From contig DASZRD010000009.1 of the NCBI GenBank assembly GCA_035549255.1, positions 49,071 through 113,070 on the forward strand: a DNA stretch of 64,000 nucleotides, given 5' to 3'. The stretch is from Minisyncoccota bacterium (GTDB taxonomy: Bacteria; Patescibacteriota; Minisyncoccia; Phycocordibacterales; SBAW01). A program made the position numbers and the translations under genes. Positions 1 to 31,996 of this stretch are shown here, one piece after another; the first letter of the stretch is position 1, and the number at the start of each line of letters is the position of its first letter. A model generated the notes under the pieces. The model was not told the DNA's origin, made no database searches, and worked only from the letters and a program-made list of their open reading frames with translations.

Positions 1-3000
1 GCGGTCGTGGGCGACAACAGCTTCACCTTCGACGGCACGACGCTCAATGCGCCGGCCGCGGTCTTTACGACGCTTACCAATCTCGGCTCCGCCAATCTCG
101 GCACGGTCTCGACCGGCGTGTGGCACGGCACCGCCATCGCCGACTCGTATGTCGCGGACAATCTCACGATCAGCGGCGGGACCATCAACAACACGCCGAT
201 CGGCGCTGCGACGCCTTCGACGGCGGTCTTCACCAATGCCACAAGCACCAACGCGACGACGACCAATTTCTATGCCTCCGGCCAGACTCGCCTCGGCTCG
301 CTCACCGGCCTTGTTTCCGCAAACGGCGGCATCGTTACCGCGGTCGCGACCAACACGCTCGGGCTCCTCGGCTCGACCAGCCTCTCCGCAACCGCGCCGC
401 TCGCGTACAACTCATCGACCGGCGTCTTCTCGATAAGCCAGGCGAGCGGCAGCCAGGACGGCTATCTTGCTTCTGTTGACTGGACGCAGTTCAACAACAA
501 AGTTTCCTCGACCTCGCTCTCCGCAACGGGGCCCCTGGCATACAATCCCGCGACCGGCGTCTTTTCGCTTGACCAGGCGGGTACCTCGCAAGACGGTTAC
601 CTTTCCTCGGCAGATTGGAACGTATTCAATAACAAGATTTCTTCCTCGAGCCTGTCGGCGGCCGGCCCGCTCTCGTACAACTCTTCGACCGGCCAGTTCA
701 CGATCTCGCAGGCAAGCGGCTCGCAAAATGGTTACTTGAGCTCTGGTGATTGGACCATCTTCAACAATAAAGTTTCTTCAAGCTCGCTCGCGCTCGTCAT
801 CAACCAGGCGTACCCGTTCCCGCAGGCGGGCAATGGCACTTCGACGCTCACCCAGTTCAACGGCGGCATCACCGCCTACGCTTCGTCGACCATCTCGGCG
901 CTAACGTCTATCTTCGCGACCACCAGCAGCTTCGCGATACTCAACGTGCCCTCGGCGCTCCTTACGACCAATGCACAGGGCCAAGTCGTCGCAACTTCGA
1001 CGCTGGGGGTCGCCTATGGCGGCACGGGATCTTCGACGCTCGGCGGTATCCTCATCGGCAACGGCCGCGGTAGCGTCACCTCGGCAAACGTGTCGGCGCC
1101 GCTGAGCTTCTCCGGAAATACGCTCTCGATCCAGGCTGCGAGCGGCTCGCAGAACGGCTATCTCTCGAGCGCCGATTGGACGACATTTAACAACAAAATT
1201 TCCTCCACTTCGCTTTCAGCCGCCGCGCCGCTGTCCTACAATAGCTCGACCGGCCAGTTCACGATCTCGCAGGCAAGCGGCTCGCAGAACGGCTACCTTT
1301 CTTCGAGCGATTGGAACTCCTTCAACGCGCGCCTCTCGACGACGACGCTCGGCCTCTTCGACAAGGGCTACTTCTTCTCGACGACGTCGGCCGATTATTA
1401 TCTTTCGCAGCAGAGCCTCGTCGGATTCTCGACCACGTCGGCTAATTACTGGAAGACGCAGAATAACTTCTTCTCGACCACCTCGGCGATCTACTTCGCC
1501 AATGCTTCGACCACCATCCCCAAGACGTACACCGCCAATACCTTCACCGGCGCGCAGACCTTCCAGAACGGCATCACGACTAACGCGCTCTCGGTAGGCT
1601 CCCTTACCGGCCCCTTGCAGGCGATCGGTGGCGTCGTCTCCTCGACCTCGACGCTCTCGATCATCTACGGCGGCACCGGCACCTCGACGCCCCCTACCTA
1701 CGGCAAGGTACTCCTCGGCAATGCGCAGGGCGGCTACGATTTGGTCGGCACCTCGAGCCTCGGCCTCATCACCAACAACTCGCTCTCGGCGATTGTACCG
1801 CTCCAATACAACACGGGTACGGGCGTCTTCTCGATCCAGAACGCCAAGGCGGACTCCTCGACGCTCGGCGCCGCAACCTTCGCGTCGAACGACTTCAACG
1901 ACAACGGCTCGGGGCTGATCTCGATCGACTACGCGAACGCGCAGAAGGCGACTGGGAGCCAGGCGGGCCTTCTCGCCAGCTCCGATTGGAATGTCTTCAA
2001 TAACAAGATATCGTCCTCCTCGCTCTCGGGCGCCTCGGTCATCGCGTACAACGGCACGACGGGCGTCATCTCGACGCAGGCGGGGACCTTCGGCGGGAAC
2101 GCAAGCAGCGTGTACACCTTCCCGGGCGACCTCGTCACCACGGGCACCGCGACGACCACCAATCTTTACATCGGCGGTACGATAAGCGGCGCCAACCTCT
2201 CCTCCTGCTCGGGCGCATCAGATAAATTGCTCTGGAATTCCTCGACGCAGCAGTTCTCCTGCGGCACGGACGCGGGCGCATCCGGCTCGGACGTCAACTG
2301 GACGCACTTTAACAACAGCGGTATCCGCGTCACGACCGCGACCGACCAGGTGCTCATCGGCTTCACCTCGACCTCGAGCCTCAGCAAGCTCGAAGTACAC
2401 GGCGGCGCGACGATCGACAACGCGACGACGACCAACCTGGTTACTACCGGCGTCGCGTATTTCAGCGGCAATGTCGGCATCGGCACTACGTCGCCCTATC
2501 AGAGCCTGACCGTCGCGTCGGGTAATATCCTCCAGGTCGCCGGCAGCAACCCGACGCTCGCGACCTCGACGGCCGTCGGCGGCTCGACGTACGGCGTATA
2601 TACCTCGGGCAACTACGCGTACGTCGCGGCCGGCAGCGTGCGCATCGTCGACACGACCCAGCCGGGAGCCTCGAAGGTCGTCGGCTCGTATACGGGCACC
2701 ACGCAAGCACAGTCGATCGTCGTCTCGGGCAAGTATGCCTACGTTGGCGATGCGAGCGCGGGCCTCGCGATCCTTGATGTCAGCAACCCGGCAAGCCCGA
2801 CGCTCGTCGGCAGCCTCAATTACTCGACCGTGGGCCACCCGCTCTCGATAGCGCTCTCGGGTCGCTACCTTATCGTGCCGGACTTTGATTCGGGCAAGGT
2901 AAGCGTCGTTGATATCGCGAACCCGGCGGCTCCGGCAGTGGTCGGTACCTACACCACCGGCGGCGCGCCCGCGACCGTCGCGCTCTCGGGCAAGTACGCC

Positions 3001-6000
3001 TACATCGGCGACCAGGCGGACGGCAATATATATATAGAAGACATCAGCAACCCGGCGAAGCCGGTCGCACTCTCGCCCTACACCGGTCTCTTGGGCCCGC
3101 AGGCGATCTACATCTCCGGCCGCTACGCCTACGTGGCTGACATTGCAGGCGGCCTCTACGCGCTCGACATCAGCAACCCTGCGAGCGTCTCGCTCGCAGG
3201 GTCGAAGACTGGCACCGGCTACTACACGGTCGAGGTTGCGGGCGACTACGCGTATGTCACCGATTCTTCGGGTAATCTCGTCGTTCTTGACGTTCACAAC
3301 CTTGGCAGCATTACGACCGCAGGCACGTATGCCACTGGCGTGAGCCCGCGCGGGCTTGCGCTCTCGGGCAAGTACGCGTACGTCACCTCCGGCAACTCGA
3401 CCCTCAAGGTGGTCGACATCAATGGCGCCAAGCTCCCGGCGGCTTCCATCGGCACGATTGAGACTAATAGCATCAATGTCGCCGACGCGGTCAAGGTTGG
3501 CGGCGACGGCTTCTTCGGCGGCGGGCTCAATGTCGGGGCTAGCGGCATCTTTAGCCGCGGCGGGCTCGCGGTGCTCGGCTCCACGACGCTGACCGACCTT
3601 ATCGCCAAGAATGCGACTACGACCAACGCGACCTCGACCAATCTCTATGCGTCTTCGCTCATTGCGGGCAATGCGACATCTACCAACCTCTCTGTCTCGG
3701 GCGTGGCCTCGACGTCCAACCTTTATATCTCCAACCTTGTCGCCGGCGCTCTCGCTATTACTGCATCAGGGAAGGCATACAGCTTCTCGACCTCAACGTG
3801 GACCTTCGCTTCGTCAACACTTCTCGGCGACAGCAACACCTTCTCGGGCGGCAATAAATTTACCGGCAACACCACGCTTGCGAATGCTACCTCGACGAAC
3901 TTCGCGCTCACGAACATCACCAACGCGCTGCTTTCTACAAACGCAAATGGTTCGATAATCCCGACTACGATCTCAAGCCCACTTACCTTCAGCGGCAACA
4001 CGCTTTCCATACAGCAGGCGACCGCGTCGCAAAACGGCTACCTGTCTTTAACTGACTGGAATACCTTCAACGACAAGATTTCCTCGACAAGCCTCTCGGG
4101 TGCGTCGGTCATCTCGTACGATTCGTCCTCCGGCGTCATCACCACACAGCCGGGCACCTTCGGCGGCTCGGGCACGTACGCATTCCCGAACGATGTTCAG
4201 GCCAACGGCAATATAACTGCCGAAGTCGATGGCGGCGCAAGTTCCGGCCCGAATATAAATCTCGTAAACTCGGGCGGCTTCGGCGTCGGCGGCATCAACT
4301 TCTTCACCTACGCGGGGCAGACGGTGCCTTCGGCACAATGGGAGGCCGAGGATGTCGGCAACTGGACGGCCGATCAGATCTTCTCGACGAGCGTCGGCGG
4401 AGGGACTGATGCACCGCTTGCGGCCCGCCTCATCATCAAGGGCACGACCGGGTATGTGGGCATCGGCACCACCTCGCCTCTCACGACGCTCTCCGTCGGC
4501 GGCAATACCTACCTTGGCGGCAGCCTCACCGCTACGGGCACGGTGCAATTCTCCAACCTCGCGGCGGGCGCAGTTGCCGCAACCGCCAACGGCCAGCTCT
4601 ACACCTTCTCCACATCGACGTGGACCTTCGCTTCTTCGACGCTCCTCGGCGACAGTAATACGTTCTCTGGCAATGATACGTTCACCACTGCTCCCAAGCT
4701 CGGCTCTCTGACTGGTTTGGTGGCAGGTAACTCGGGCAATCTCTATGGCCTGTCTACTTCGTCGCTCAACGCCTCGATCACCGGCCAGGCAGGCAATGTA
4801 GCCAACAGCGTCACGTTCAACAACGGCGGCTCGGGCGCCTCAAGCGGCTCGACGTTCAACGGCTCATCGGCCGTCACGATCTCGTACAACACCATTGGTG
4901 CGGTCCCGGCAACCCGTAACATCAACACTACCTTCCCGCTCCAGGGCGGCGGTTCTCTTGCCTCTGACCTCACCATTACCTCTGCCTTCGGTACCACGAC
5001 CACCACCGGCCTTACGCCGAACCAGATCCTCTACACCAATGCCAACGGCGTTCTTACCACCGCGGCGTCCTCGACACTCAACCTCCCGAATGCCGCGCTT
5101 CAGAACTCGAGTGTCACGGTCAACGGCATCACCTGCACGCTCGGGAGCACCTGCACCGTCGCTTCGACGACCCTCCTTGCTAACAGCAACATCTTCAGCG
5201 GCAACAACACGTTCACCGGCAACACGACGCTTGCCAACGCCACCTCGACTAACCTCGCGCTCACGAACATCACGAACGCGCTGCTCTCGACCAACGGCAG
5301 TGGCTCCATCATCCCCACCACAGTCTCTTCGCCGCTCACGTTCTCGGGCAATACGCTCTCGATCCAGCAGGCGAACGGCAGCCAGAATGGCTACCTCTCC
5401 TCGACCGACTGGACTCAATTCAACAACAAAGTCTCTAGCTCGTCGCTCGCGACGATTATCAACTCCGCATACGAGTTCCCAGGCAATGCAACGTCAACGC
5501 AGCTCACATTTAACGGCGGCCTTGTTGCTACGGGCGCAACTACAACCAACCTTGCGGTCACCGGCACTGCATCGACCTCCAACCTCTTCATCTCGAATCT
5601 CGCAGCAGGCGCGCTCGGTATTAACGCATCAGGGAAGGCGTACAGCTTCTCAACCTCGACGTGGACTTTCGCATCCTCGACGCTCCTCTCTGACTCGAAC
5701 ACCTTCAGTGGTAATAACAAGTTCACCAATCCCATTACGCTCGGCACTCTCAACGGCCCGCTCCAGGCCAACAACGGCGTCGTCTCGGCAACCTCGTCGG
5801 TCGGCGTCCTCTACGGCGGCACGGGCCTCACGAGTGCGCCTTCATATGGCAATATCCTCGTCGGCAATTCGTCGGGCGGGTATACGCTCACCGCTACGTC
5901 TTCTCTCGGCCTCGCATCGCTCTCATCCTTCTCCGCCACTGCGCCGCTCTCGTACGATTCTTCAACTGGTGTCTTCTCGATCAGCCAGGCCAACGGCAGC

Positions 6001-9000
6001 CAGAACGGCTACCTTTCTTCGGTTGATTGGACTGCCTTCAACAACAAGATCAGCAGCACGAGCCTCTCGGGCGGCACGGGCATCAATTACACCAGTTCGA
6101 CCGGCGTCATCACCAACACCGGCGTCATCGCGGTCGGCCCGGCAGGCCAGACGCAGAACGGTACGGTAACGATCGCTTCGACCACCGCATCGTTTAACGG
6201 CCTTACCTTCGGGGTGCAGACTGTTGGCGCGGCCGGCACGCTCACCAATACGCCGACCATCGCTGGCACGCTCGACAACTCGGGCCTCACGCACTCGACC
6301 ATCGGTCTCGCCGACGCCAACTCGACGCTTACGGTTTCGGGCTCTCCGGCTGCGCTCGGCGCCAGCCTCTCCGCCACCCTCAACCTCGCGCACGGCAACA
6401 TTTGGACTGCGGCCTCGACCACCTTTGTCGGAGGGGTCACGATCGGCTCGGCCACGACGACCAACCTTGTCGCAACCAATGCCACGACCACTAACCTGGC
6501 GATCACCAGCCTTGCCAACACGCTTCTCTCCGTCAATGCGCAGGGGGCTGTGGTTGCCACCTCTTCGCTCTCGGTCAACTATCTTGCGGGCGTGCTGCCG
6601 GTCGGCAACGGCGGCACGGGCTCCTCGACGCTCGGCGGCATTCTCACGGGCAATGGCACGGGCCAAGTTACATCCGCACAGGTCTCGAGCCCGCTCACGT
6701 TCTCCGGCAATACGCTCTCGATCCAGGCTGCGAGCGGCTCGCAGAACGGCTACCTCTCCTCGACCGATTGGACGACATTTAACAACAAGATCTCCAGCAC
6801 GTCGCTCTCCGCATCCGCGCCGCTCTCGTACAATTCTTCGACTGGCCAATTCTCTATTTCGCAAGCCAATGGTTCTACGAACGGTTATCTGACCTCGAGC
6901 GACTGGACGCAATTTAATGCCAAAGTCTCAAGCTCCTCGCTCGCGCTCGTCATCAATCAGGCATACGAATTCCCGAACAACGCGACCTCGACGCAGATCG
7001 CGTTCAACGGCGGGCTTACCGCGGCAGGCGCCACGACGACTAATTTGAGCGTGAGCGGCACTGCATCGACTTCAAATCTCTTCATCTCCAACCTCGCTGC
7101 CGGTGCTCTCGGTATCAATGCGACAGGGAAGGCGTACAGTTTTTCTACCTCGACCTGGACCTTCGCTTCGTCAACATTGCTTGGCGACAACAACACGTTC
7201 TCTGGCACCGATACCTTCACCAACGCTCCAAAACTCAGCACGTTGACTGGCCTCATCAGCGGCAACTCTGGCACTCTCTATGGCACAGCGACTGGTACGG
7301 TTTCGGGTAGCAATGGTATCTCGGTCACCGCAGGCCAGTCGATCATCGGAAGCGGCCTCACGATCACAGCAACCAATGCCGTGGCAGATGCTTCGACCAA
7401 GGGCGTCGCCACGTTTGCTGCCAACGACTTCAACGACAACGGCTCGGGGCTCATCTCGATCGATTATGCAAACGGCCAGCTCGCGAGCGGCAGCCAGAAC
7501 GGCTTCCTCTCGAACTCTGACTGGAACTCATTTAACTCGCGCCTCTCGACCACAACACTCGGCCTCTTCGACAAGGGTTACTTCTTCTCAACCACTTCCG
7601 CGTCGTACTTCCTCGCACAGAATCAGGGCAACGCATTCTCCACGACATCCGCGATCTACTTCGCTAATGCTTCGACTACCATCCCGAAGACCTATACCGC
7701 CAACACCTTCACCGGCGCGCAGACGTTCCAGAACGGCATCACGACTAACGCGCTCTCGCTCGGCACGCTCTCGGGCCCGCTCCAGGCCAACAACGGCGTC
7801 GTCTCCGCCACCAGCTCGATCGGTGTCCTCTATGGCGGCACGGGCCTCACGTCAGCACCGTCCTATGGCACTATCTTGGTTGGCAATTCTTCGGGCGGTT
7901 ATACGCTCACCGCAACTTCGAGCCTCGGCCTCGCGGCGCTATCGTCCTTCTCGGCAACCGCTCCGCTCCAGTATGACAACACGACCGGCATCTTCTCGAT
8001 CACGCAAGCCAACGGTAGCACCAACGGCTACCTTTCTTCGGTTGATTGGACTGCCTTCAACAACAAGATCTCGAGCACCTCGCTCAGCGCCACCGGCCCG
8101 CTCTCGTACAATCCGTCGACCGGCGTGTTCGCGATCTCCCAAGCGAACGGCTCTACGAACGGCTACTTGAGCAGCACTGACTGGAATACGTTCAATCAAA
8201 AGGTTTCCTCGTCCTCGCTTTACTCGTACGTGGCAGGGAACAAAGACTGGCAGATAATAAACGGCGCCCTCAGCCCGACCACCACGCTCGGCATCGGCGT
8301 GTACGCCTCCTCGACCATCGGCAATGGCGCGCAGAGCGGCGGCCTCACCGTAAACGGCGGCGCGACAACAACCGGCAACGCGTACTTCGCGGGGAACGTC
8401 GGCATCGGTACCCAGTCGCCGAGCGCGCGGCTCGATATCAATGCTTCGTATACGACTACCGGCTTCCCGCTCAGCGTTAAAAATTCGGGGTATTACAACG
8501 CCTACTTCCAGGGCACGAACGCCAACAACCAGGCGTCCTTCTATATGGAGAATGACCGCGGCTCATTCGCATCCTACGGCGGATTCCTCTACGGCGGCTC
8601 TACCAGCGGCCTCTCGAACCTCTTCGGCGCGCCGCGCGCGGATCGCCTGTTCATGTTTGCCGATGGCGCATCGAACCTCGGTTATTACGTCGGAACCCTT
8701 ACGGCGCAGCCATTCGTGATCGGCACGAACAATCTTGAGCGCGCGCGAGTCGACGGCACGACCGGGTATGTGGGCATCGCCACCACGTCGCCGCTCACGA
8801 CGCTCTCCGTCGGCGGCAATACCTATCTCGGCGGCAATCTGACTGCGACCGGCACGGTACAGTTCACAAATCTTTCTGCTGGCGCGGTTGCCGCAACTGC
8901 CAATGGCACGCTCTACACCTTCTCCACCTCGACGTGGACCTTCGCTTCATCGACGCTCCTTGGCGACAATAACACGTTCTCTGGCAACAACACATTCACG

Positions 9001-12000: not shown

Positions 12001-15000
12001 AACCTGCGCGGCCTCACCTTCCGCACCGGCGGCAACAACACCCACATGGTCATAGACTCCTCGGGCAATGTCGGTATCGGCACCACCAGCCCGGGTGCCA
12101 CCTTCGCCGTAGCGGGCGACGGATACCTGACCGGCGCTCTTACGGTCGGCGGCCAGACCACGCTTGCTGCATCGCTCAATGGCTTGCTCAAAGCCACGAA
12201 CGGCGTCGTCTCGGCTGCTGTAGCAGGAACCGACTACAGCAACTTCGCATATCCGTTCCCGCTCACCGGCAACGCAACCTCATCCCTTACCCAATTCAAC
12301 GGCGGACTCACGGCATATGCGACTTCCACGATCGGCAACGGCGCGCAGGCGGGCGGCCTCACCGTAAGCGGTGGCGCGACGACGACGGGGAATGCGTACT
12401 TTGGGGGGAATGTTGGTATTGGGACCAACGCCCCGACCAGCGCGCTCACGCTCGCACTGGGCAACTCGATCGCCCTCTACAATACCGCCGACCAGACGAC
12501 CAACTACGAGCGCGGCCAGATTGATTGGACCTCAAACGCTCTACGCATCGAGACCGTGGGCGGGGGAAGCGGCTCCAACTCGAGAAGCGTCATTCTCTCC
12601 TCCGGCGGCGCGAACCTGGTGACCGCATCCGCAGGTACGGTCAAGGTAACGCTCAACGGCGGCACCTCGGGCGTCGGCCCGGGCGTCCTCACGAACGGCT
12701 CCTTCAACGGTGCTTCGACTAATCAGGTCGTGCAGTCGATCGCGCCAACCTTCAACCAGTCGGGCACCTCGGGCTATACCGCGCTCTTGATCCAACCGAC
12801 CGAAACCGCCGTCGGCTCGGGGAATAAGTACCTTATCCAGGCCGGCACCAGCACGGCGGCGACGCTCTTCGCCGTCGACAACGCGGGGAATATCACCACC
12901 AATATCACCGGCTCGACGCAATGCCTCCATGTCAATTCGTCCGGCGTTATCTCGGGCACTGGGGCTGACTGCGGCGCCGGCGGCTCGCCGTTCCCATTCA
13001 CGCCGCTCGCGCTCGGCAACGCGACGTCAACCCTGCTTCTCCTCAACAACGGCGTCATTGCCGCAGCGTCTTCAACGATCGGTAATGGTACTGCCGCGGG
13101 CGGTCTCACCATTAACGGTTCAGCTACCTCGACTGGTACGACTACTATCCAAAACGCATTTGCGGTCACAGGCACCAACGGCGGCGTTCCGGTCTCCGGC
13201 GCCGGTACTCGGCTCGAGTTTATTCCTAATCTGGGTGCGCTCCGAGCTGGACAAGTTTCTAGCACCCAGTGGGATGCTTCAAATATCGGCACTTCTTCTT
13301 TCGCGACCGGGCTTGATACTACAGCCTCTGGAGGTTACTCGGCGGCTTTGGGTTATCGAGCGACGGCAAGCGGTGTAGGATCATTTGCCGGCGGCTACTT
13401 TACCGATTGTGGAATGGGTATTATCTCCAGCGGCATTGGCTCGTTTGCATACGGCTATCTTAATCATGGTGTAACAGGCTGCGCGTTTACCCAGATACAG
13501 GCCTCTGGAAATGGCTCAGTTGCTATGGGATATGCGCTTGCCGGTAGAACCATTACTGCTACTCAATCTGGTTCGATCGCTCTCGGTTATGCGAATAACG
13601 GAAGCATTACATCGTCCGGCATTGGTTCATTTGCGGTTGGTGATGGCAATATTACTTCTTCGGGCAGTGGTTCCGTGGCCTTGGGCTATGGCGAGAGCGG
13701 CCTCCTTAGTGCCACTGGACAGGGTGCAGTCGCGATTGGCGCCAATGTTAACGCTACCCAGAACAACGCTCTCGCTTTCGGCTCCTCGTTCACCAACAAC
13801 ATCGCATCCACCTTCCAGGTCGGATTCTCCGCGACACCGACACTCACGGTCACCGCGACGAATACCGGCATCGGCACCACGTCGCCGTACGCCAAGTTCT
13901 CCATCTCTGCCAACGGCAGTGACACCAATAGCACTCTCTTTGCCATTGCATCTTCCACGAGTGGTACTGCAACCTCGACCTTGTTTGCAGTCTCTAACAT
14001 CGGCACTATTACCACCACGCTCGGTGCTGGTGCAGTCGGTGTGAACTCCCTCGGCCAGCTCTACAGCTTCGCTACTTCCTCGGGTTCGGCGGCGTCATCG
14101 ACTCTCCTTGCCGACTACAACACGTTCTCCCACCTCCAGCAATTCAACGGTGGCTTCACGGCGTATGCTTCTTCGACCATTGGCAATGGCGCGCAAATCG
14201 GCGGGCTCACCGTAAGCGGCGGCGCTACGACCACGGGCAACGCGTACTTCGCGGGCAACGTTGGCGTCGGGACAGTATCGCCTGGCTCGACGCTCGATGT
14301 TGGCGGCACGGCGCAGCTGCGCGGCGCGGGCGGTGGGACGGGACTGTATGTCAACAGCAGCGGCAACGTCGGCATCGGTACTACTGGGCAGAATGCCAAG
14401 CTTGAGATCCGCCAGGACGGCAATGGAGTCCAAACCCAGCTCGTCTTGCGCAATAACCAGGGCTCGAGCAATGGCGCGACATCGCGCTTGGGCTTCGGCG
14501 TCTACCGCGATGTCGACGCAACGGCGCTCGGCGCCGCGATCGATGCGATCACCACAGCAGGCATCCCGAACGGCGACAACGCCGAGGGCGCGATCCTCGC
14601 CTTTAGCACGACTAAGGATGGTACTTCCGGCCTGCAGGAGCGCATGCGCATCCTCAACACTGGCAATGTCGGCATCGGTACCAAGAATCCTCAGGCAACC
14701 CTCGACGTCCAGGGCACTGCATCATCGAGCAACCTCTTCGTTACCAACGCTGCCACCACCACCAGCCTTGCGATCACTGGTCTTACTTCGCAGTCCTGCA
14801 TCGGTACCAACTCGCAGGGCCAAGTCGTCGCGGGCACCTGCGGCGGAGGCGGCTCACCATTCCCATTCACGCCGTCTGCGCTTGGCAACTCGACTTCGAC
14901 TCTGCTTCTCCTCAACAACGGCGTCATTGCCACAGCGTCTTCCACAATCGGTAACGGAACAGCGACAGGTGGGCTCACGGTCAACGGCAATTCGACGACG

Positions 15001-18000
15001 ACCGGCAACGTCTACGTTGCCGGTGCCATCGGTATCGGTACCAAGAGCCCATGGGCCTCGCTCGACGTGAATGGCAGCATTGCGATCGCCAACAACAACG
15101 GCGGCAGCACCAACAAGCTCTATCTCGCCTCAGGCGACGGCACGCACTATATATATTCGACCGGTTCTGGCGTGGGCGGCAACAACACCTACTTCGGTGA
15201 ATGGGGCGGCAACTATCACTTCCTCGATACGAGCAATTCGTCCGAGCCGGTTACTATTACCGGAGGCAATCTTGGTGTCGGGACCACGACGCCGACTGCA
15301 AAACTCTCGCTCCAGTACAACTCGGGCGATACGCAGACGACTCTCTTCGCGATCGCGTCCTCAACCGGCAGCACAGCGGTAAACCTCTTCTCGGTCGACA
15401 ATACCGGGCTCACGACGATTGGCAATCCGACCGGTACCGGCGACGCGAATATCCAGTTCGGCGGCGACGCTACGGCATGGTCGGTCGGCAACTACGGGGG
15501 CGACAATTCCTTCCGTATTGCATCCTCGACCAACCTTGCCAACAACGTAGCCTTCGAAGTTACTAAGGCCGGTACCGCCTCGACAACGAACCTTACCATT
15601 TCTTCGCTCGGGGCTTCAGCTGGCAGTTGTCTCACCACCGATTCAAGTGGCAATGTGACAACCACTACATGCGGCGGAGGCGGCTCACCATTCCCATTCA
15701 CGCCGTCTGCGCTTGGCAACTCGACTTCGACTCTGCTTCTCCTCAACAACGGCGTCATTGCCGCAGCGTCTTCCACAATCGGTAATGGCAATCAGAACGG
15801 CGGTCTCACAGTGAGCGGTGGTGCCACCACAACCGGCAACGCGTACTTCGCTGGAAATGTAGGGATTAATAATACTCTTGCAGTTGGGGGGAACGTGGTT
15901 ACTTCCGGAGCGCAGATAGACTCTGCTGGGGTCATTTACTCTCATGGAACCGGAGGCATTAGCTTTGCCTTGAACAGCACTGGCAGTAATTATGGAACCA
16001 TCCAGAATGATGCGCCCGACACATGGTCTCTGGGTACCAACAGTATGCTCACTGGTCTCGGTACGCACGTTCTAACTTGGACAAAGGCTGGCAACATCGG
16101 CATCGGTACCTCGACGCCGGCCAGCCTCCTCACGGTAAGTAATAGCAATACGGGCACACTCACGTACGACGGCACGTCGCTTACGGTCTCGCCGGTCGGT
16201 ACTACGACGACCGCAGGCGCTGTGACCATCACGCCGGGAGCGGCGGGAGGTCCGGGCCTCGGCATCAAAGGATTCAATGGTAACAGCATCGCGCAAATCT
16301 TCACATCCTCCGGCAGCCTCCGCACGCTTCAGATAACTAATACCGGCGCGGGTGGTCTTCAGACAGTCTTTGCGGGCGGTACTGGCAAGAACTTGATCGG
16401 CATCGGGACGACATCGCCGTTTGCTCCGCTCTCAATAGCGGCCAACGGTGGCGACACTAACCCGACACTTTTTGCGATCTCCAGCTCAACCGCCGCCTTT
16501 GCTACCACGACGCTCTTCTCGGTCTCCAACACCGGCTCGACCACCATCGCCAACGGTGTCAACATCACGAGCGGCTGCTACGCGGTCAACGGTACCTGCC
16601 TCTCGACCGGTGGTAGCGGCGGCTCACCATTCCCATTCACGCCGTCTGCGCTTGGCAACTCGACTTCGACCCTGCTTCTCCTCAACAACGGCGTCATTGC
16701 TTCCGCATCCTCGACCATCGGCAACGGTACTGCCGCAGGTGGGCTCACGGTCAATGGCAATTCGACGACGACGGGGAGCCTCTATACTGGCGGCGGTATC
16801 ACGATTGCAGGCACGAACCCGAGCTTCGTATCCCTTTCGGAAAATAACGGCGGGGTTAGCTTCATTAACTATCTCGGCAGCGGCAGTGACGGCACTGGGA
16901 CTTATATCACTAACACATCGAACCATTCTCTGTTCCTCGGCACCAATAATACGACCAAGCTTACGATCGCTGCGGGCGGCAACGTTGGCATAGGCTCAAC
17001 CACGCCGGGCACCCTTCTCTCGATCGGCAGCGTCAACGGCATTAACTTCACCACGGCGACCTCGACCTTCAATTCGACCGGCGGCATCAATATTACGAAC
17101 GGCTGCTATGCGGTGAACGGCGTTTGTCTCACGACCGGCGGCGGGAGCAGCCAATGGACCACGAGCGGCTCGAGCATCTACTACAACACCGGCAGTGTCG
17201 GCGTCGGCACCTCTTCACCGTTCGCCAAGTTCTCGGTCCAGCAGAATTACGGCGACACGCAGACGACGCTCTTCCAGATCAGCTCGTCGACGGCTACCGG
17301 CGGCGCAACCGCTAACTCCTTCTTCTCGGTCGACAATACCGGCCTCACGACGATTGGCGATCCTTCCGGCACCGGCGATGCGAACTTCCAGTTCGCCAAT
17401 GACAACCACGCCTGGTCGGTCGGCTACTATGCGGGCGACAACTCCTTCCGCATCGCGTCGGGCACGTCGCTTGCCTCCAACCCGGCTATCTCCGTCGATA
17501 AGAATGGCACGACGACCATATCCAACGGCGTCAACATACAGTCGGGCTGCTTCTCGGTACAGGGGACGTGTCTCAGCTTCTCGAGCGGAGCCGCGGACTC
17601 GCAATTCGTTAGTACCGACGGTCAGGCGAACATCACCACCTCGACGACCTCGCTCGCCACCATCAGCATCACGCCTTCCACGGCGACTGGCGACGTCTTT
17701 GTCAGCGCGAAGGTAAGCATGTCTTCCAAGACGGCCACCGACTTTATTACCAGCATTGCTGTTCGGGATACGACCTGCACCGGCACGATCTTTGCCCAGG
17801 CGATGGCGAGCTCGACCTCCGCGTCCGGCTCCAACGGTTCGACCGCCTTTGCCAACGGCCTCGAGAACAACCCTGGCACGACGAGCCAGACATACGCGCT
17901 GTGCGCGAGCGATACGTCAGGGACCAACCCGGCGACCTACTTCCTCTCGGCACTCGTCATCAACCCCGGCGCCGACGTGGCAGAGCTTTACTCGACGCTC

Positions 18001-19170
18001 GATGCCGGTATTCAGCCTGGCGACATCGTTTCGGCAGATACGACGCATTTCGAGGGTGTGCGCAAGAGCAGCCCGTATGCTGATTCGCAGCTGATGGGCG
18101 TCGTCTCCACCAACCCGAGCGTCGTCATCGGTACCCCGGTCAATCAAAACGGCAATATCGTGCCGATCGCCTTGCGCGGCCGCATCCCGGTGAAGGTCAA
18201 CCTCGAGGGCGGCGATATCGCCGTGGGCGACCGGATCACGCTCTCGTCGGTGTCAGGCGTCGGCAAGAAGGCGGGTGACCTCGACCAGAGCATCGGCATC
18301 GCTCTTGAGCCGTTCACCGCGCAATCGACGACCACCTCCGTGCTCGTGTTCCTCGACATGCAGCAGGGCGACAACGTCGGCGCGCTCACTAATACTCTGC
18401 TCGGCACCTCGACCGCCACCAGCACTGCTACCAGCACGCCGCAAACAGGCTTTCTCTCGGTGCTCTTCTCCCGCATCGCGAGCTGGCTCGGGGGCGCTGG
18501 CAACGGCATCGCGAACATCTTCACGCAGACGCTCACGGCGACCGTCGTCAACGCCGATACGGTCAACACCAAGCAGCTCTGCATCACCGACGCCTCGGGC
18601 GGCAAGACCTGCGTCACCAAGGCCCAGCTCGACCAGCTCCTCCAGGGCCAGGGAGGTAGCGCGGGCTCTGGCGCAGGGTCCGGTTCAGGTTCGGGCGGCG
18701 CAGGATCGGGCAGCGGCACGACGATGCCCGCAAGCCCCGACCCTGACGCGCCGACGATCACGATCAATGGCGCCAACCCGGCGATGCTCGTGGTAGGCGA
18801 CACGTATGCCGACCTTGGCGTGACGGTGAGCGACGCGCAGGATCAGAATCTCGGCTACCTCGTTTCGCTCGACGGTGCTGCGACCACGACGCCCGACCAG
18901 ATCCATATCGACACGTCGGCCGCAGGAACGCATACCATCACGTACGTCGCGACCGATAACGACGGCAATGTCACGACCGCGCTGCGCACCGTAATCGTCC
19001 AGGATGCGGCGAGCTCGACGCCGTCCGTGCTTCCGCCGGTTGATACGGGCGATACCGGTACCACGACCGGAAGCGGCGCCGATGCGGGCGGCACGGCGAC
19101 CTCGACCGATGCCGGGGCGGGTGCCGGTACCGCACAGGGCGGCGAGGGCACGACTACTCCGGCGGAGTAA
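1..19170 (+). CDS. Giant repetitive cell-surface protein, 5'-partial; more than 6387 aa lie in the window
   Basis: The open frame continues from base 1 with no stop upstream of 7 and ends at TAA 19168-19170. It is Ser/Thr/Gly/Asn-rich. Its parts are 44-aa SQNGYLSS-DWT-FNNK repeats, an LVIVD-like propeller, repeated CGGGGSPFPFTP modules, a GS linker and an Ig-like C-terminus. Confidence 0.85.
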   Translation, partial: AVVGDNSFTFDGTTLNAPAAVFTTLTNLGSANLGTVSTGVWHGTAIADSYVADNLTISGGTINNTPIGAATPSTAVFTNATSTNATTTNFYASGQTRLGSLTGLVSANGGIVTAVATNTLGLLGSTSLSATAPLAYNSSTGVFSISQASGSQDGYLASVDWTQFNNKVSSTSLSATGPLAYNPATGVFSLDQAGTSQDGYLSSADWNVFNNKISSSSLSAAGPLSYNSSTGQFTISQASGSQNGYLSSGDWTIFNNKVSSSSLALVINQAYPFPQAGNGTSTLTQFNGGITAYASSTISALTSIFATTSSFAILNVPSALLTTNAQGQVVATSTLGVAYGGTGSSTLGGILIGNGRGSVTSANVSAPLSFSGNTLSIQAASGSQNGYLSSADWTTFNNKISSTSLSAAAPLSYNSSTGQFTISQASGSQNGYLSSSDWNSFNARLSTTTLGLFDKGYFFSTTSADYYLSQQSLVGFSTTSANYWKTQNNFFSTTSAIYFANASTTIPKTYTANTFTGAQTFQNGITTNALSVGSLTGPLQAIGGVVSSTSTLSIIYGGTGTSTPPTYGKVLLGNAQGGYDLVGTSSLGLITNNSLSAIVPLQYNTGTGVFSIQNAKADSSTLGAATFASNDFNDNGSGLISIDYANAQKATGSQAGLLASSDWNVFNNKISSSSLSGASVIAYNGTTGVISTQAGTFGGNASSVYTFPGDLVTTGTATTTNLYIGGTISGANLSSCSGASDKLLWNSSTQQFSCGTDAGASGSDVNWTHFNNSGIRVTTATDQVLIGFTSTSSLSKLEVHGGATIDNATTTNLVTTGVAYFSGNVGIGTTSPYQSLTVASGNILQVAGSNPTLATSTAVGGSTYGVYTSGNYAYVAAGSVRIVDTTQPGASKVVGSYTGTTQAQSIVVSGKYAYVGDASAGLAILDVSNPASPTLVGSLNYSTVGHPLSIALSGRYLIVPDFDSGKVSVVDIANPAAPAVVGTYTTGGAPATVALSGKYAYIGDQADGNIYIEDISNPAKPVALSPYTGLLGPQAIYISGRYAYVADIAGGLYALDISNPASVSLAGSKTGTGYYTVEVAGDYAYVTDSSGNLVVLDVHNLGSITTAGTYATGVSPRGLALSGKYAYVTSGNSTLKVVDINGAKLPAASIGTIETNSINVADAVKVGGDGFFGGGLNVGASGIFSRGGLAVLGSTTLTDLIAKNATTTNATSTNLYASSLIAGNATSTNLSVSGVASTSNLYISNLVAGALAITASGKAYSFSTSTWTFASSTLLGDSNTFSGGNKFTGNTTLANATSTNFALTNITNALLSTNANGSIIPTTISSPLTFSGNTLSIQQATASQNGYLSLTDWNTFNDKISSTSLSGASVISYDSSSGVITTQPGTFGGSGTYAFPNDVQANGNITAEVDGGASSGPNINLVNSGGFGVGGINFFTYAGQTVPSAQWEAEDVGNWTADQIFSTSVGGGTDAPLAARLIIKGTTGYVGIGTTSPLTTLSVGGNTYLGGSLTATGTVQFSNLAAGAVAATANGQLYTFSTSTWTFASSTLLGDSNTFSGNDTFTTAPKLGSLTGLVAGNSGNLYGLSTSSLNASITGQAGNVANSVTFNNGGSGASSGSTFNGSSAVTISYNTIGAVPATRNINTTFPLQGGGSLASDLTITSAFGTTTTTGLTPNQILYTNANGVLTTAASSTLNLPNAALQNSSVTVNGITCTLGSTCTVASTTLLANSNIFSGNNTFTGNTTLANATSTNLALTNITNALLSTNGSGSIIPTTVSSPLTFSGNTLSIQQANGSQNGYLSSTDWTQFNNKVSSSSLATIINSAYEFPGNATSTQLTFNGGLVATGATTTNLAVTGTASTSNLFISNLAAGALGINASGKAYSFSTSTWTFASSTLLSDSNTFSGNNKFTNPITLGTLNGPLQANNGVVSATSSVGVLYGGTGLTSAPSYGNILVGNSSGGYTLTATSSLGLASLSSFSATAPLSYDSSTGVFSISQANGSQNGYLSSVDWTAFNNKISSTSLSGGTGINYTSSTGVITNTGVIAVGPAGQTQNGTVTIASTTASFNGLTFGVQTVGAAGTLTNTPTIAGTLDNSGLTHSTIGLADANSTLTVSGSPAALGASLSATLNLAHGNIWTAASTTFVGGVTIGSATTTNLVATNATTTNLAITSLANTLLSVNAQGAVVATSSLSVNYLAGVLPVGNGGTGSSTLGGILTGNGTGQVTSAQVSSPLTFSGNTLSIQAASGSQNGYLSSTDWTTFNNKISSTSLSASAPLSYNSSTGQFSISQANGSTNGYLTSSDWTQFNAKVSSSSLALVINQAYEFPNNATSTQIAFNGGLTAAGATTTNLSVSGTASTSNLFISNLAAGALGINATGKAYSFSTSTWTFASSTLLGDNNTFSGTDTFTNAPKLSTLTGLISGNSGTLYGTATGTVSGSNGISVTAGQSIIGSGLTITATNAVADASTKGVATFAANDFNDNGSGLISIDYANGQLASGSQNGFLSNSDWNSFNSRLSTTTLGLFDKGYFFSTTSASYFLAQNQGNAFSTTSAIYFANASTTIPKTYTANTFTGAQTFQNGITTNALSLGTLSGPLQANNGVVSATSSIGVLYGGTGLTSAPSYGTILVGNSSGGYTLTATSSLGLAALSSFSATAPLQYDNTTGIFSITQANGSTNGYLSSVDWTAFNNKISSTSLSATGPLSYNPSTGVFAISQANGSTNGYLSSTDWNTFNQKVSSSSLYSYVAGNKDWQIINGALSPTTTLGIGVYASSTIGNGAQSGGLTVNGGATTTGNAYFAGNVGIGTQSPSARLDINASYTTTGFPLSVKNSGYYNAYFQGTNANNQASFYMENDRGSFASYGGFLYGGSTSGLSNLFGAPRADRLFMFADGASNLGYYVGTLTAQPFVIGTNNLERARVDGTTGYVGIATTSPLTTLSVGGNTYLGGNLTATGTVQFTNLSAGAVAATANGTLYTFSTSTWTFASSTLLGDNNTFSGNNTFTNVPKLGGLTGLVAGNSGNLYGLSTTSLNASITGQAGNVANAVTFNNSGSGASSGSTFNGSSAVTISYNTIGAQVAGTYVTSVGATYPLISSGGTAPVISSAFGTSTNWGLGANGIVVTNASGVPFIAASSTLNLPNSALQNSTITVNGIAFNLGDSKTITAASSTLLANSNTFSGNNTFTGNTTLANATSTNLALTNITNALLSTNGSGSIIPTTVSSPLTFSGNTLSIQAASASQNGYLSSTDWTQFNNKVSSSSLAAVVNQAYEFPSNATSTQIAFNGGLTATGATTTNLSVTGTASTSQLYISNLSTGGLGISSTGKVYSFATSTWTFASSTLLGDSNTFSGNNTFTNAPKLGSLTGLVAGNSGNLYGLSTSSLNASITGQAGNVANSVTFNNGGSGASSGSTFNGSGALTVSYNTIGAQVAGTYVTSVNATYPLLSSGGTAPTISTAFGTTTNTGIGSNLFIYTDNNGVFKGAASSSLNLPNSALQNSSITINTSGGLTGGAAVSLGNSISLGCQAASGSQAGCLSSTDWTTFNNKVSSSSLAALNYAAYPFYAAGNATTTLTQFNGGLTAYASSTIGNGILGLTVNGPATTTGNLVVQGSGTSTIAGSLSVSGNLNFNGNLLQNGVPFSSSQWITNGSSIYYGTGNVGIGTSTPYAKLSVAGDIVGGTINATSTTATSTIAGSFNVGNGALSYDVNSGITSINNLQLGAQTFDADAGILSWIDMPVTSASSAGTVESYSAQIDGNPLLTIYSQSDGSGGIQNAAVGIGTTSPFAMLSVQGSGYLAGSLTITGITATGTVQLTSLTGGAVAANPNGTLYTFATSTLTSASSTLLGDSNTFSGNNTFTNAPKLGSLTGFVAANNGTLYQLASSSLNLPNAALQNSSITINGTAFNLGDSKTVAAASSTLLGDTNTFSGTQNAFTNKVGIGTTSPRTTLQVAAGGSGILPQASSIAAFESNSNGYISLLTPDSAENGLLFGSPTGGNADAGIIYNNNTNLRGLTFRTGGNNTHMVIDSSGNVGIGTTSPGATFAVAGDGYLTGALTVGGQTTLAASLNGLLKATNGVVSAAVAGTDYSNFAYPFPLTGNATSSLTQFNGGLTAYATSTIGNGAQAGGLTVSGGATTTGNAYFGGNVGIGTNAPTSALTLALGNSIALYNTADQTTNYERGQIDWTSNALRIETVGGGSGSNSRSVILSSGGANLVTASAGTVKVTLNGGTSGVGPGVLTNGSFNGASTNQVVQSIAPTFNQSGTSGYTALLIQPTETAVGSGNKYLIQAGTSTAATLFAVDNAGNITTNITGSTQCLHVNSSGVISGTGADCGAGGSPFPFTPLALGNATSTLLLLNNGVIAAASSTIGNGTAAGGLTINGSATSTGTTTIQNAFAVTGTNGGVPVSGAGTRLEFIPNLGALRAGQVSSTQWDASNIGTSSFATGLDTTASGGYSAALGYRATASGVGSFAGGYFTDCGMGIISSGIGSFAYGYLNHGVTGCAFTQIQASGNGSVAMGYALAGRTITATQSGSIALGYANNGSITSSGIGSFAVGDGNITSSGSGSVALGYGESGLLSATGQGAVAIGANVNATQNNALAFGSSFTNNIASTFQVGFSATPTLTVTATNTGIGTTSPYAKFSISANGSDTNSTLFAIASSTSGTATSTLFAVSNIGTITTTLGAGAVGVNSLGQLYSFATSSGSAASSTLLADYNTFSHLQQFNGGFTAYASSTIGNGAQIGGLTVSGGATTTGNAYFAGNVGVGTVSPGSTLDVGGTAQLRGAGGGTGLYVNSSGNVGIGTTGQNAKLEIRQDGNGVQTQLVLRNNQGSSNGATSRLGFGVYRDVDATALGAAIDAITTAGIPNGDNAEGAILAFSTTKDGTSGLQERMRILNTGNVGIGTKNPQATLDVQGTASSSNLFVTNAATTTSLAITGLTSQSCIGTNSQGQVVAGTCGGGGSPFPFTPSALGNSTSTLLLLNNGVIATASSTIGNGTATGGLTVNGNSTTTGNVYVAGAIGIGTKSPWASLDVNGSIAIANNNGGSTNKLYLASGDGTHYIYSTGSGVGGNNTYFGEWGGNYHFLDTSNSSEPVTITGGNLGVGTTTPTAKLSLQYNSGDTQTTLFAIASSTGSTAVNLFSVDNTGLTTIGNPTGTGDANIQFGGDATAWSVGNYGGDNSFRIASSTNLANNVAFEVTKAGTASTTNLTISSLGASAGSCLTTDSSGNVTTTTCGGGGSPFPFTPSALGNSTSTLLLLNNGVIAAASSTIGNGNQNGGLTVSGGATTTGNAYFAGNVGINNTLAVGGNVVTSGAQIDSAGVIYSHGTGGISFALNSTGSNYGTIQNDAPDTWSLGTNSMLTGLGTHVLTWTKAGNIGIGTSTPASLLTVSNSNTGTLTYDGTSLTVSPVGTTTTAGAVTITPGAAGGPGLGIKGFNGNSIAQIFTSSGSLRTLQITNTGAGGLQTVFAGGTGKNLIGIGTTSPFAPLSIAANGGDTNPTLFAISSSTAAFATTTLFSVSNTGSTTIANGVNITSGCYAVNGTCLSTGGSGGSPFPFTPSALGNSTSTLLLLNNGVIASASSTIGNGTAAGGLTVNGNSTTTGSLYTGGGITIAGTNPSFVSLSENNGGVSFINYLGSGSDGTGTYITNTSNHSLFLGTNNTTKLTIAAGGNVGIGSTTPGTLLSIGSVNGINFTTATSTFNSTGGINITNGCYAVNGVCLTTGGGSSQWTTSGSSIYYNTGSVGVGTSSPFAKFSVQQNYGDTQTTLFQISSSTATGGATANSFFSVDNTGLTTIGDPSGTGDANFQFANDNHAWSVGYYAGDNSFRIASGTSLASNPAISVDKNGTTTISNGVNIQSGCFSVQGTCLSFSSGAADSQFVSTDGQANITTSTTSLATISITPSTATGDVFVSAKVSMSSKTATDFITSIAVRDTTCTGTIFAQAMASSTSASGSNGSTAFANGLENNPGTTSQTYALCASDTSGTNPATYFLSALVINPGADVAELYSTLDAGIQPGDIVSADTTHFEGVRKSSPYADSQLMGVVSTNPSVVIGTPVNQNGNIVPIALRGRIPVKVNLEGGDIAVGDRITLSSVSGVGKKAGDLDQSIGIALEPFTAQSTTTSVLVFLDMQQGDNVGALTNTLLGTSTATSTATSTPQTGFLSVLFSRIASWLGGAGNGIANIFTQTLTATVVNADTVNTKQLCITDASGGKTCVTKAQLDQLLQGQGGSAGSGAGSGSGSGGAGSGSGTTMPASPDPDAPTITINGANPAMLVVGDTYADLGVTVSDAQDQNLGYLVSLDGAATTTPDQIHIDTSAAGTHTITYVATDNDGNVTTALRTVIVQDAASSTPSVLPPVDTGDTGTTTGSGADAGGTATSTDAGAGAGTAQGGEGTTTPAE
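382..777 (+). repeat. Three tandem 132-bp (44-aa) repeats 'LSA..PL.YNSSTG.F.ISQASGSQ(N/D)GYLSS.DWT.FNNK.SS.S'. More copies are dispersed at about 1080-1320, 3960-4090, 5320-5460, 5890-6080, 6680-6930, 7930-8220, 9630-9770 and 10540-10640.
   Basis: Found by direct inspection of the translated giant ORF and its DNA. Confidence 0.8.
2560..3440 (+). repeat. Eight '(S/A)G.YAYV...L.(I/V)(L/V)D(V/I)SNPA.P..VG.Y' blades, matching the LVIVD-repeat beta-propeller pattern, inside the giant protein
   Basis: The unit recurs every ~40 aa: SGNYAYVAAGSVRIVD..., SGKYAYVGDASAGLAILDVSNP..., SGRYLIVPDFDSGKVSVVDIANP..., SGKYAYIGD..., SGRYAYVADIAGGLYALDISNP..., AGDYAYVTDSSGNLVVLDV..., SGKYAYVTSGNSTLKVVDI... Confidence 0.6.
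14851..14958 (+). repeat. ~100-bp near-identical intragenic direct repeat, copy 1 (GGSPFPFTPSALGNSTSTLLLLNNGVIA module)
   Basis: An ~81-bp stretch 'ggctcaccattcccattcacgccgtctgcgcttggcaactcgacttcgac(t/c)ctgcttctcctcaacaacggcgtcattgc' starts at 14851, 15682 and 16621 and differs at only one base in the third copy. A diverged copy sits at ~12982. Confidence 0.85.
15682..15789 (+). repeat. ~100-bp near-identical intragenic direct repeat, copy 2
   Basis: See copy 1. Confidence 0.85.
16621..16730 (+). repeat. ~100-bp near-identical intragenic direct repeat, copy 3
   Basis: See copy 1. Confidence 0.8.
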
Positions 19171-19183
19171 TATATAAAGATCC

Positions 19184-20158: not shown

Positions 20159-20199
20159 CGGGCTTGAACGCGCGAGGAATTAATTTCTGATTAGGTATG

Positions 20200-20208
20200 T
20201 GCGATAAT
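20200..20208 (+). promoter_or_regulatory. Candidate extended -10 promoter element TGcGATAAT, 11 nt upstream of the ATG of cassette 1
   Basis: TG at 20200-20201 is followed by GATAAT at 20203-20208. The same architecture sits at 24745-24753 before cassette 2. Confidence 0.4.
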
Positions 20209-20219
20209 AATAGAACGAT

Positions 20220-31994: not shown

Positions 31995-31996
31995 GC

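Follow-up and report, generated by a model that had tools for sequence, protein, structure and literature searches.

The stretch of DNA analysed here (the window, 64,000 nucleotides (nt) in length) covers positions 49,071 to 113,070 of the forward strand of contig DASZRD010000009.1, from assembly GCA_035549255.1 of a Minisyncoccota bacterium. Its first 19.2 kb are filled by the 3' part of one giant gene, which an initial annotation, made from the letters alone, had described as coding for a repetitive modular surface protein and candidate host-attachment adhesin. The features located in and next to this gene are collected in Table 1. Among them is a putative phage-type intramolecular chaperone domain near the C-terminus, which was absent from the initial annotation and which is the most informative mechanistic clue.

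Frame +1 runs without a stop from base 1 to base 19167 and closes at 19168-19170, which makes 6389 codons, or 6387 when counted from the first GTG at base 7; the gene is thus one unbroken, 5'-truncated frame of more than 6387 amino acids (aa), as first proposed. From the base composition about 180 stops would be expected in 6389 codons and the probability of finding none is about 1e-78, and the remaining five frames of the region contain 66 to 453 stops. The G+C content at third codon positions (GC3) lies between 0.65 and 0.86 in every 1.5-kb slice of the open reading frame (ORF), compared with 0.77 in the housekeeping genes of the window, and the overall G+C content is 0.59-0.63 in the giant gene versus about 0.58 in the rest of the window. 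An NCBI contig (CAYTYW010000014.1, 177,268 bp, assembly GCA_964442315.1) matches the window at 99.995% identity over 20,975 bases and is identical over the giant-gene part 9184-19170, the sole difference being a synonymous C/G at window base 25040, in a neighbouring gene. The gene call in this contig gives the giant protein 7526 aa; about 1137 of these (3411 nt) must therefore be encoded before window base 1, and the true N-terminus is outside the window, as had been supposed. Moreover, window positions 16671-21787, which include the giant-gene part 16671-19170, recur without a difference in a Logan assembly made independently from run SRR12170510. Copies of the repeats share at most 87% identity over at least 200 bp of DNA, and the longest exact DNA repeat in the gene measures 80-99 bp; since none reaches 100 bp, assembly with long k-mers is unambiguous. 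The internal repeat copies have ratios of nonsynonymous to synonymous divergence (dN/dS) of 0.13-0.38 with dS of 0.44-1.4, and go back to old duplications that were kept by purifying selection. The coding gene is real, beyond reasonable doubt.

Table 1. Positions in the window of the giant gene, of its modules and of the gene that follows it.
Feature	Position (nt)	Strand	Remarks
Giant gene, 3' 85%	1..19170	+	6389 codons and stop; full gene 7526 aa in NCBI contig, start about 3411 nt upstream of base 1
Conserved non-repeat segment 'GDNSFTFDGTTLNAP...VWHG...LTISGGTINNTPIG' (aa 1-85)	1..255	+	Within aa 1-192, which align to relative P0002 aa 803-1036
45-aa unit zone ('PL.YNSSTG.FSISQASGSQNGYLSS.DWT.FNNK', 16 full)	379..10632	+	Tandem pairs or triplets and dispersed
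LVIVD beta-propeller, seven blades (aa ~855-1150)	2563..3450	+	PF08309, E 2e-53, 7 stretches
Super-repeat copy 1 (aa 1441-1860)	4321..5580	+	About 80% aa identity to copy 2, dN/dS 0.26, dS 0.70
Super-repeat copy 2 (aa 2879-3300)	8635..9900	+	About 80% aa identity to copy 1
Super-repeat copy 3, partial (aa ~3290-3520)	9868-10560	+	Follows copy 2
'GNVGIGTTSP'-delimited module zone (14 of 18 motifs)	11791..17580	+	Module type of 'tail fiber domain-containing' S74-chaperone proteins
'CGAGGSPFPFTP...SSTIGNG' modules, 4 strict	12970..13089; 14839-14958; 15670-15789; 16597-16728	+	Pattern match
YadA-head-type repeat block (aa ~4430-4600)	13288..13800	+	PF05658, 32.9 bits against a cut-off of 25, 4 stretches; not in the initial annotation
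Conserved C-terminal cassette (aa 5860-6345)	17578..19035	+	Beta-rich lead-in, chaperone, helices, Cys hairpin, GS linker, Ig-like domain
Putative phi29-gp12-type (Peptidase_G2-like) intramolecular chaperone	17968..18495	+	Beta domain aa 5990-6119 and helices to about aa 6165
A5991-D5992-V-A-E5995 (then L-Y)	17971..17985	+	Predicted autocleavage site, if cleavage occurs; aligns on gp12 S691/D692-F-A-E695
'CITD....K.C' hairpin, conserved	18580..18612	+	Then 'VTKAQLDQLL', then Gly/Ser linker (nt 18652-18720)
Bacterial surface Ig-like domain (aa 6253-6333)	18757..18999	+	PF16403, E 7e-12; then Thr/Gly/Asp-rich low-complexity tail to stop
Serine hydrolase, beta-lactamase family, N-terminal membrane anchor	19184..20158	+	Starts 13 nt after the giant-gene stop

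The protein is built from several repeat systems, and Thr, Gly and Ser together make up about 43% of its residues. The 45-aa unit, with the pattern 'S.SA..PL.Y...TG.FSIQQASGSQNGYLSS.DWT.FNNK.SST', has 16 full copies, each 43-48 aa long and none outside aa 127-3544, and about four half or degenerate ones (profile hidden Markov model); the earlier count of about 20 or more is therefore acceptable, while the unit length of 44 aa given with it has to be corrected. Units of the types 'STLLGD.NTFSG', 'FNGG', 'YGGTG' and 'FSTTSA' are interspersed in this zone, the last of them newly described here, and the previously noted 'STWTFASSTLLGD.NTFSG' units are indeed present, in seven copies by a strict pattern and ten by a relaxed one. 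In the propeller, seven 'SG.Y(A/L)(Y/I)(V/I)' motifs, spaced evenly about 42 aa apart between aa 870 and 1128, match the seven PF08309 stretches, so that it has seven blades and not eight; as judged from the sequence, the tandem repeats are enough to close it. The small units sit inside super-repeats of 140-420 aa, and further internal matches join aa 1900-2040 with 2573-2713 and aa 420-600 with 2490-2670, which bears out the description of the repeat systems as nested. Of the five 'C.GGGSPFPFTP...SSTIGNG' modules reported before, four are strict copies (aa 4324, 4947, 5224 and 5533) and the fifth is present only in divergent form (aa 4083); five looser 'AY(P/E)F(P/Y)...FNGG' variants lie upstream of them. 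The protein also contains 18 'G(I/V)GT..P' motifs, 14 of them within aa 3931-5860, and five short Cys hairpins (CxxxxxxC), neither of which had been noticed; three hairpins of the form C(Y/F)(A/S)V(N/Q)G(T/V)C lie within the zone of these motifs. A Pfam scan of the whole protein returned only LVIVD, YadA_head and Bact_surface_Ig-like, a phmmer search of the whole protein against PDB sequences gave nothing useful, and the 45-aa unit matched in the PHROGs only families of unknown function.

In comparison with this repetitive body, the last 530 aa or so are non-repetitive and widely conserved. The C-terminal cassette matches 8566 cluster representatives at E<=1e-3, in many cases at, or close to, the C-terminus of proteins of about 350 to more than 2400 aa. 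Some 220 cluster representatives share the cassette at E<=1e-30, which makes for a large family without a name, and the giant gene represents it in well-preserved form. A search with the chaperone alone matched eight fragments. In an AlphaFold2 (AF2) model built from 26 sequences, the Ig-like domain and aa 5990-6119 are predicted with confidence. Foldseek against the PDB ranked gp12 of phage phi29 first (3suc, E 1.5e-4; 3gqh, E 1.8e-4), the top matches in the viral model library BFVD were 'Preneck appendage protein' (E 2e-10), and a profile of the cassette family matches the gp12 sequence itself (6qz9_A, E 3.7e-6). Moreover, the conserved family motif D-x-A-E-x-Y aligns on gp12 S691/D692-F-A-E695-Y, with D5992 on D692 and E5995 on E695. 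The D and A of D-x-A-E are nearly invariant in the 26 homologues, five of which also match PF11962 weakly (best E 2.6e-4), and the crystallised C-terminal fragment of gp12 (3gqh) begins at the aligned Asp. The D and E at this site are presumably catalytic, as in MEROPS family G2. Profile, model and motif together point to a domain that is very probably homologous to the gp12-type chaperone. In phi29, gp12 forms a homotrimer, and its intramolecular chaperone domain is missing from the virion (PMC9863714); mature gp12* ends at residue 691, the last one modelled (PMC6542822). By analogy, autocleavage at A5991/D5992 is possible in the giant protein, a proposal that we make tentatively.

Domains of this type also cap phage proteins. 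They are terminal in four phage-like contigs (L083, L103, L120 and L122), and four ORFs of L120 end in one. L120 (264-12495; marine contig Ga0098055_1000252) is a genuine myophage contig, with a tail sheath (E 7e-105), virion proteins and five consecutive tail-fibre genes. In a complete Kaiserbacteria relative of 3328 aa (L020, 9377-19360), the position of the G2-type domain is taken by a chaperone of the S74 endosialidase type, followed by the same hairpin and Ig-like domain. Two unrelated types of phage chaperone thus occupy one position, which argues that the modules upstream of them fold as phage-type, presumably trimeric, fibres.

The N-terminal end can be followed in relatives. Residues 1-192 of the window protein align to aa 803-1036 of P0002 (56% identity, E 2e-67), a relative that begins with a helix-turn-helix (HTH) domain and a transmembrane (TM) helix. 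Such a start, in which HTH_17 (Pfam E 1.6e-9 to 2.8e-4) precedes a charged helix and then a single hydrophobic TM helix, was found in 8 of the 11 relatives with readable N-termini; the hydrophobic helix lies at aa ~92-144 in seven of these and at ~254-272 in one. HTH_17 starts are carried by large patescibacterial fibre proteins at loci L004, L005, L007, L008, L009, L011, L013 and L034 and by proteins P0002, P0016 and P0063. The domain is excisionase-like, so that a module of DNA-binding type is tethered to a giant extracellular chain; it is duplicated in P0016, and NCBI labels such proteins only as 'helix-turn-helix domain-containing protein'. The Kaiserbacteria relative at L020 has a classical N-terminal signal peptide. 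At the other end, the C-terminus of the giant protein ('...GGEGTTTPAE') has neither an LPXTG motif nor a hydrophobic segment. The initial annotation had placed an N-terminal secretion signal outside the window; the location stands, but most relatives have the HTH and TM anchor there and not a signal peptide. As far as sequences can tell, chaperone type (G2 or S74) and anchor type are interchangeable in this fibre family.

Homologues of the first 1200 aa come mostly from Patescibacteria (Paceibacterota, Parcubacteria, Kaiserbacteria, Magasanikbacteria, Minisyncoccia). Several of them carry PF13884 (Peptidase_S74), PF11962 (Peptidase_G2), PF16403 or PF12728, and PF13884 recurs in many homologues of the modules. 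Patescibacterial loci contain ORFs of at least 6385, and of 4462, 4039, 3849, 3581, 3489, 3328 and 3072 aa. The largest, from a different Paceibacterota species (L003), is cut at the edge of its locus; a block containing the propeller is colinear between it and the giant protein (62-78% identity), and both have the same C-terminal cassette. The 45-aa units number 16 in the giant protein versus 13 in L003, the GIGT motifs 18 versus 7 and the GSPFPFTP modules 4 versus 0. With the number and order of modules differing so strongly, the family evolves by shuffling and expansion.

The interpretation given in the initial annotation is partly supported. Ribosomal proteins S2 and L25, a release factor, glyceraldehyde-3-phosphate dehydrogenase (GAPDH) and the downstream hydrolase match exactly NCBI proteins of 'Candidatus Paceibacterota bacterium', so the guess of an ultra-small bacterium belonging to the candidate phyla radiation (CPR) was right, and large ORFs are common in Patescibacteria. 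A G+C content of 59% is not as expected for Patescibacteria. The modules, however, are not confined to ultra-small bacteria and occur also in Bacteroidota, Oligoflexales/Bdellovibrio, Omnitrophota and phage contigs; the 45-aa unit in particular is found in Bacteroidota, Oligoflexales/Bdellovibrio and some Proteobacteria, and in 294 stretches of IMG/VR contigs whose viral nature is unverified. The IMG/VR loci L123-L202 all (80 of 80) carry the unit, in up to 14 copies. Six IMG/VR contigs that we inspected have unit-bearing ORFs of up to about 2300 aa, few of them with clear phage hallmarks in PHROG scans, and one contig has a GroEL gene near the repeat (L128, 463-2109). Some of the IMG/VR contigs may be cellular fragments (CPR or Bacteroidota) misfiled as viral owing to their tail-fibre-like genes, and virus-detection pipelines may misfile such cellular genes more generally.

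The best reading of these results is that the protein is a membrane-anchored, probably trimeric, tail-fibre-like surface fibre whose modules are partly shared with phage tail fibres. It is, in our judgement, probable that the gene is cellular and intact and that its product is a fibre displayed on the surface and assembled with chaperone help. The chain would be held in the cytoplasmic membrane by its N-terminal anchor (in most relatives a cytoplasmic HTH_17 and one TM helix), and the remainder would be exported. The C-terminal chaperone might then align three chains and nucleate their folding into one long fibre, a homotrimer, in the manner of phage tailspikes and tail fibres, and may afterwards cleave itself off at A5991/D5992. 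Binding surfaces far from the cell would be offered by the propeller, by the YadA-like head, by the unique inserts separating 'GIGTTSP' motifs and, if it is retained, by the distal Ig-like domain. Most likely the fibre would serve to attach the cell to a host, to prey or to some other surface, with diversification by module shuffling and expansion. The trimeric autotransporter AtaA has about 3600 aa. Scaled from it, the fibre could, speculatively, reach several hundred nm, about the size of the cell or more. Giant membrane proteins of CPR bacteria have been proposed to serve host recognition and attachment (PMC8080830), and predicted adhesins are essential in Saccharibacteria (PMC11665869).

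Several points weigh against this reading or parts of it. The 45-aa unit has no Pfam family and no solved relative even by profile search, and the AF2 monomer model of a typical 'GIGT...GSPFPFTP' region has a mean predicted local distance difference test (pLDDT) score of 50. PF11962 does not match the giant protein even at E<=5, and the conserved Asp is preceded by Ala where gp12 has Ser, at a position that varies across the family. About 225 residues (Cys hairpin, Ig-like domain and tail) lie C-terminal of the chaperone, here and in L003, and one patescibacterial ORF (L038, 8948-13843) has two internal G2-type copies (aa 1096-1224 and 1363-1489). The two internal copies are hard to reconcile with a simple C-terminal cleave-off role and, taken with the trailing residues, suggest that the chaperone may be a stable trimerisation knot that is not discarded. 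Three of the 11 relatives with a readable start have a signal peptide in place of the HTH and TM helix. The gene's own N-terminus lies outside the window, and the HTH and TM anchor that we infer for it from its relatives is fairly likely. We also infer the trimeric state, which we favour to a similar, moderate degree. Host adhesion as the main role would be in line with published CPR hypotheses, and we regard the chances for and against it as balanced.

A second reading, of lower but appreciable probability, makes the protein part of the cell's envelope or coat, for instance a spacer, a phage decoy or a fibrous glycocalyx, and not a host-specific adhesin. The Ser/Thr-rich fibre would then be a protective or structural layer, and its modules, which resemble phage receptor-binding proteins, could soak up or block phages. 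The Thr, Gly and Ser content makes heavy glycosylation plausible, the window encodes a family 2 (GT2) glycosyltransferase, the gene is clustered with two other large glycine-rich anchored proteins, and one Kaiserbacteria metagenome-assembled genome (MAG) has related genes on two contigs (L012 and L020). However, the propeller, YadA head and Ig-like domain are typical ligand-binding or adhesion modules, and rapid shuffling of modules between species is easier to explain by interaction with a variable partner than by a role that is purely structural.

The HTH and membrane-helix anchor of the relatives hints at a coupling of surface and cytoplasm. The topology of HTH, TM helix and fibre is that of ToxR/CadC-like one-component regulators, so host contact or tension could reach the HTH. 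That the family is contact-sensing, with a surface fibre coupled through the membrane helix to a cytoplasmic HTH, is nevertheless improbable in our view. The effect could be altered gene expression or nucleoid tethering at the attachment site, and the phage-type chaperone would provide for assembly of the extracellular trimer free of other chaperones. A precedent is the eukaryotic factor MYRF, in which a membrane helix and a self-cleaving chaperone of phage type are joined to a DNA-binding domain, though in a different topology.

That the gene codes for a phage or prophage tail fibre, or for part of a phage-tail-like particle, is highly unlikely. The G2-type domain does cap tail fibres in a real myophage contig, a weak tail-fibre match was obtained in the PHROGs, the 45-aa unit recurs in IMG/VR contigs, and relatives are labelled 'tail fiber domain-containing protein'. 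On the other side, the 45 kb downstream contain no phage genes (capsid, portal, terminase, tail), all genes there being housekeeping or envelope genes; base composition and GC3 match the host genome; the N-terminal membrane anchors or signal peptides of the relatives are not found in virion proteins; and 7526 aa is far above the usual size of tail fibres. There is, moreover, almost no match in the deposited-phage collection: the 45-aa unit was found there once (LR756504.1, 378513-378653, a 636-kb uncultured phage; 53% over 47 aa) and the C-terminal cassette did not match any deposited phage genome. On these two search results a phage gene was rejected, and we retain that modules are shared with phage fibres. 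Finally, a pseudogene or a mis-assembled chimera of repeats, which had been named as the outcome that would overturn the annotation and for which the metagenomic source and the strongly repetitive sequence might speak, is very improbable given a frame without stop or frameshift that is not expected by chance, assemblies that agree (Logan over the 3' 2.5 kb of the gene), exact repeats all shorter than 100 bp, purifying selection on the repeat copies, and the ORF of another species (L003), which reaches at least 6385 aa and has both the cassette and a block colinear with the giant protein.

Cellular 'tail fiber domain-containing' proteins are already known, as are giant surface proteins of CPR bacteria, and among open-access papers and preprints we found none on CPR fibres capped by phage-type chaperones or held by HTH and TM anchors. 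Compared with known systems, the protein resembles phi29 gp12 (Peptidase_G2, PF11962) in its profile homology, in the D-x-A-E motif on the cleavage site and in having the chaperone downstream of a long fibrous or repetitive region. It differs in being cellular and 7526 aa long, in falling below the Pfam threshold, in the Ala before the Asp, in a domain that is not terminal (Cys hairpin, Ig-like domain and low-complexity tail follow) and in lacking the beta-helix enzymatic 'tassel' upstream. With the S74 (PF13884) tail fiber proteins of bacteria and phages it shares the 'GNVGIGTTSP...ERMRI' module type, and the S74 domain of the Kaiserbacteria relative stands exactly at its G2 position with the same hairpin and Ig-like domain; unlike them it has a G2-type chaperone, and it is 4-10 times longer than the homologues listed (about 400-2000 aa).

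Trimeric autotransporter adhesins (YadA, AtaA) are similar in their YadA-head repeats, here above the Pfam cut-off, and in forming a long, repetitive, presumably trimeric fibre; for AtaA, homotrimeric fibres of about 260 nm are described (PMC13082670). The giant protein, in contrast, showed no C-terminal YadA-type beta-barrel anchor in the Pfam scan, its anchor is probably N-terminal, so that the polarity would be opposite, and the organism belongs to a lineage that is monoderm (PMC11665869). The giants of Vampirococcus lugosii (1392-4163 aa) are likewise CPR proteins, the largest of a small genome, with a predicted membrane site and a proposed role in host attachment (PMC8080830). They are built of WD40, PKD, integrin and fibronectin domains, whereas the present protein has the 45-aa unit, GIGT, LVIVD and a phage-type chaperone and is almost twice as long. 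Adhesins of the type I secretion (T1SS)/RTX or LPXTG kind (SiiE, MpIBP, the Mobiluncus protein of 7651 aa) are comparable in size class, in a tandem-repeat extender and in distal binding domains; the giant protein differs from them in having no RTX/T1SS signal by Pfam and no LPXTG, in repeats that are not BIg and in a folding strategy apparently of the phage-fibre type. Since the protein lacks the anchors or signals that define them, the trimeric autotransporter, LPXTG and RTX classes were rejected.

A large part of bacterial diversity belongs to the Patescibacteria. To our knowledge, all their cultivated members live attached to other microbes, and the molecules by which they recognise and hold their hosts are, as far as we know, largely unknown apart from type IV pili. 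The family described here appears to build very long fibres, partly from phage-tail-fibre modules, that are folded by a phage-type intramolecular chaperone. The predicted cleavage site A5991/D5992, a compact C-terminal construct and the distal domains provide testable handles.

The 45 kb downstream of the giant gene are cellular and contain genes for GAPDH, fructose-bisphosphate aldolase (FBA), PfkB, elongation factor Ts (EF-Ts), PheT, GyrB, DnaE, RNase HII and RNase III, NusB, SMC, tRNA-Thr and ribosomal proteins, as well as a split transketolase, the GT2 glycosyltransferase and a sortase. The serine hydrolase gene is probably co-transcribed with the giant gene, given the short gap between them, and was not found next to relatives in the other loci that we fetched. 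It is followed by the genes of two glycine-rich proteins of 1314 and 947 aa (20220-24164 and 24765-27608), each with an N-terminal hydrophobic anchor and the repeat unit '...TSGTSWTVP.DW...IEVIGGGGGG...GQGIIVITYT', the second ending in Laminin_G_3. After each of them comes a gene for a paralogous anchored protein of about 188 aa (24167-24733 and 27605-28174). The GC skew, about -0.15 in the giant gene, changes sign to +0.18 in the glycine-rich genes, and a comparable glycine-rich module stands directly before the chaperone domain in the L003 giant protein. The giant gene and the glycine-rich genes look like a surface-protein island. The 947-codon ORF 24765-27608 (15582-18425 in L001), which holds the base 25040 difference, is split into four small genes in public calls.

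The sortase gene (50224-50850) lies 31 kb from the giant gene, which has no LPXTG sorting signal. The transketolase is divided into genes for an N-terminal and a C-terminal subunit (31020-32998), and a 461-aa protein (36902-38287) has both an SLT lytic transglycosylase domain and a region resembling a coiled coil. EF-Ts is unusually short, at 151 aa (40292-40747).

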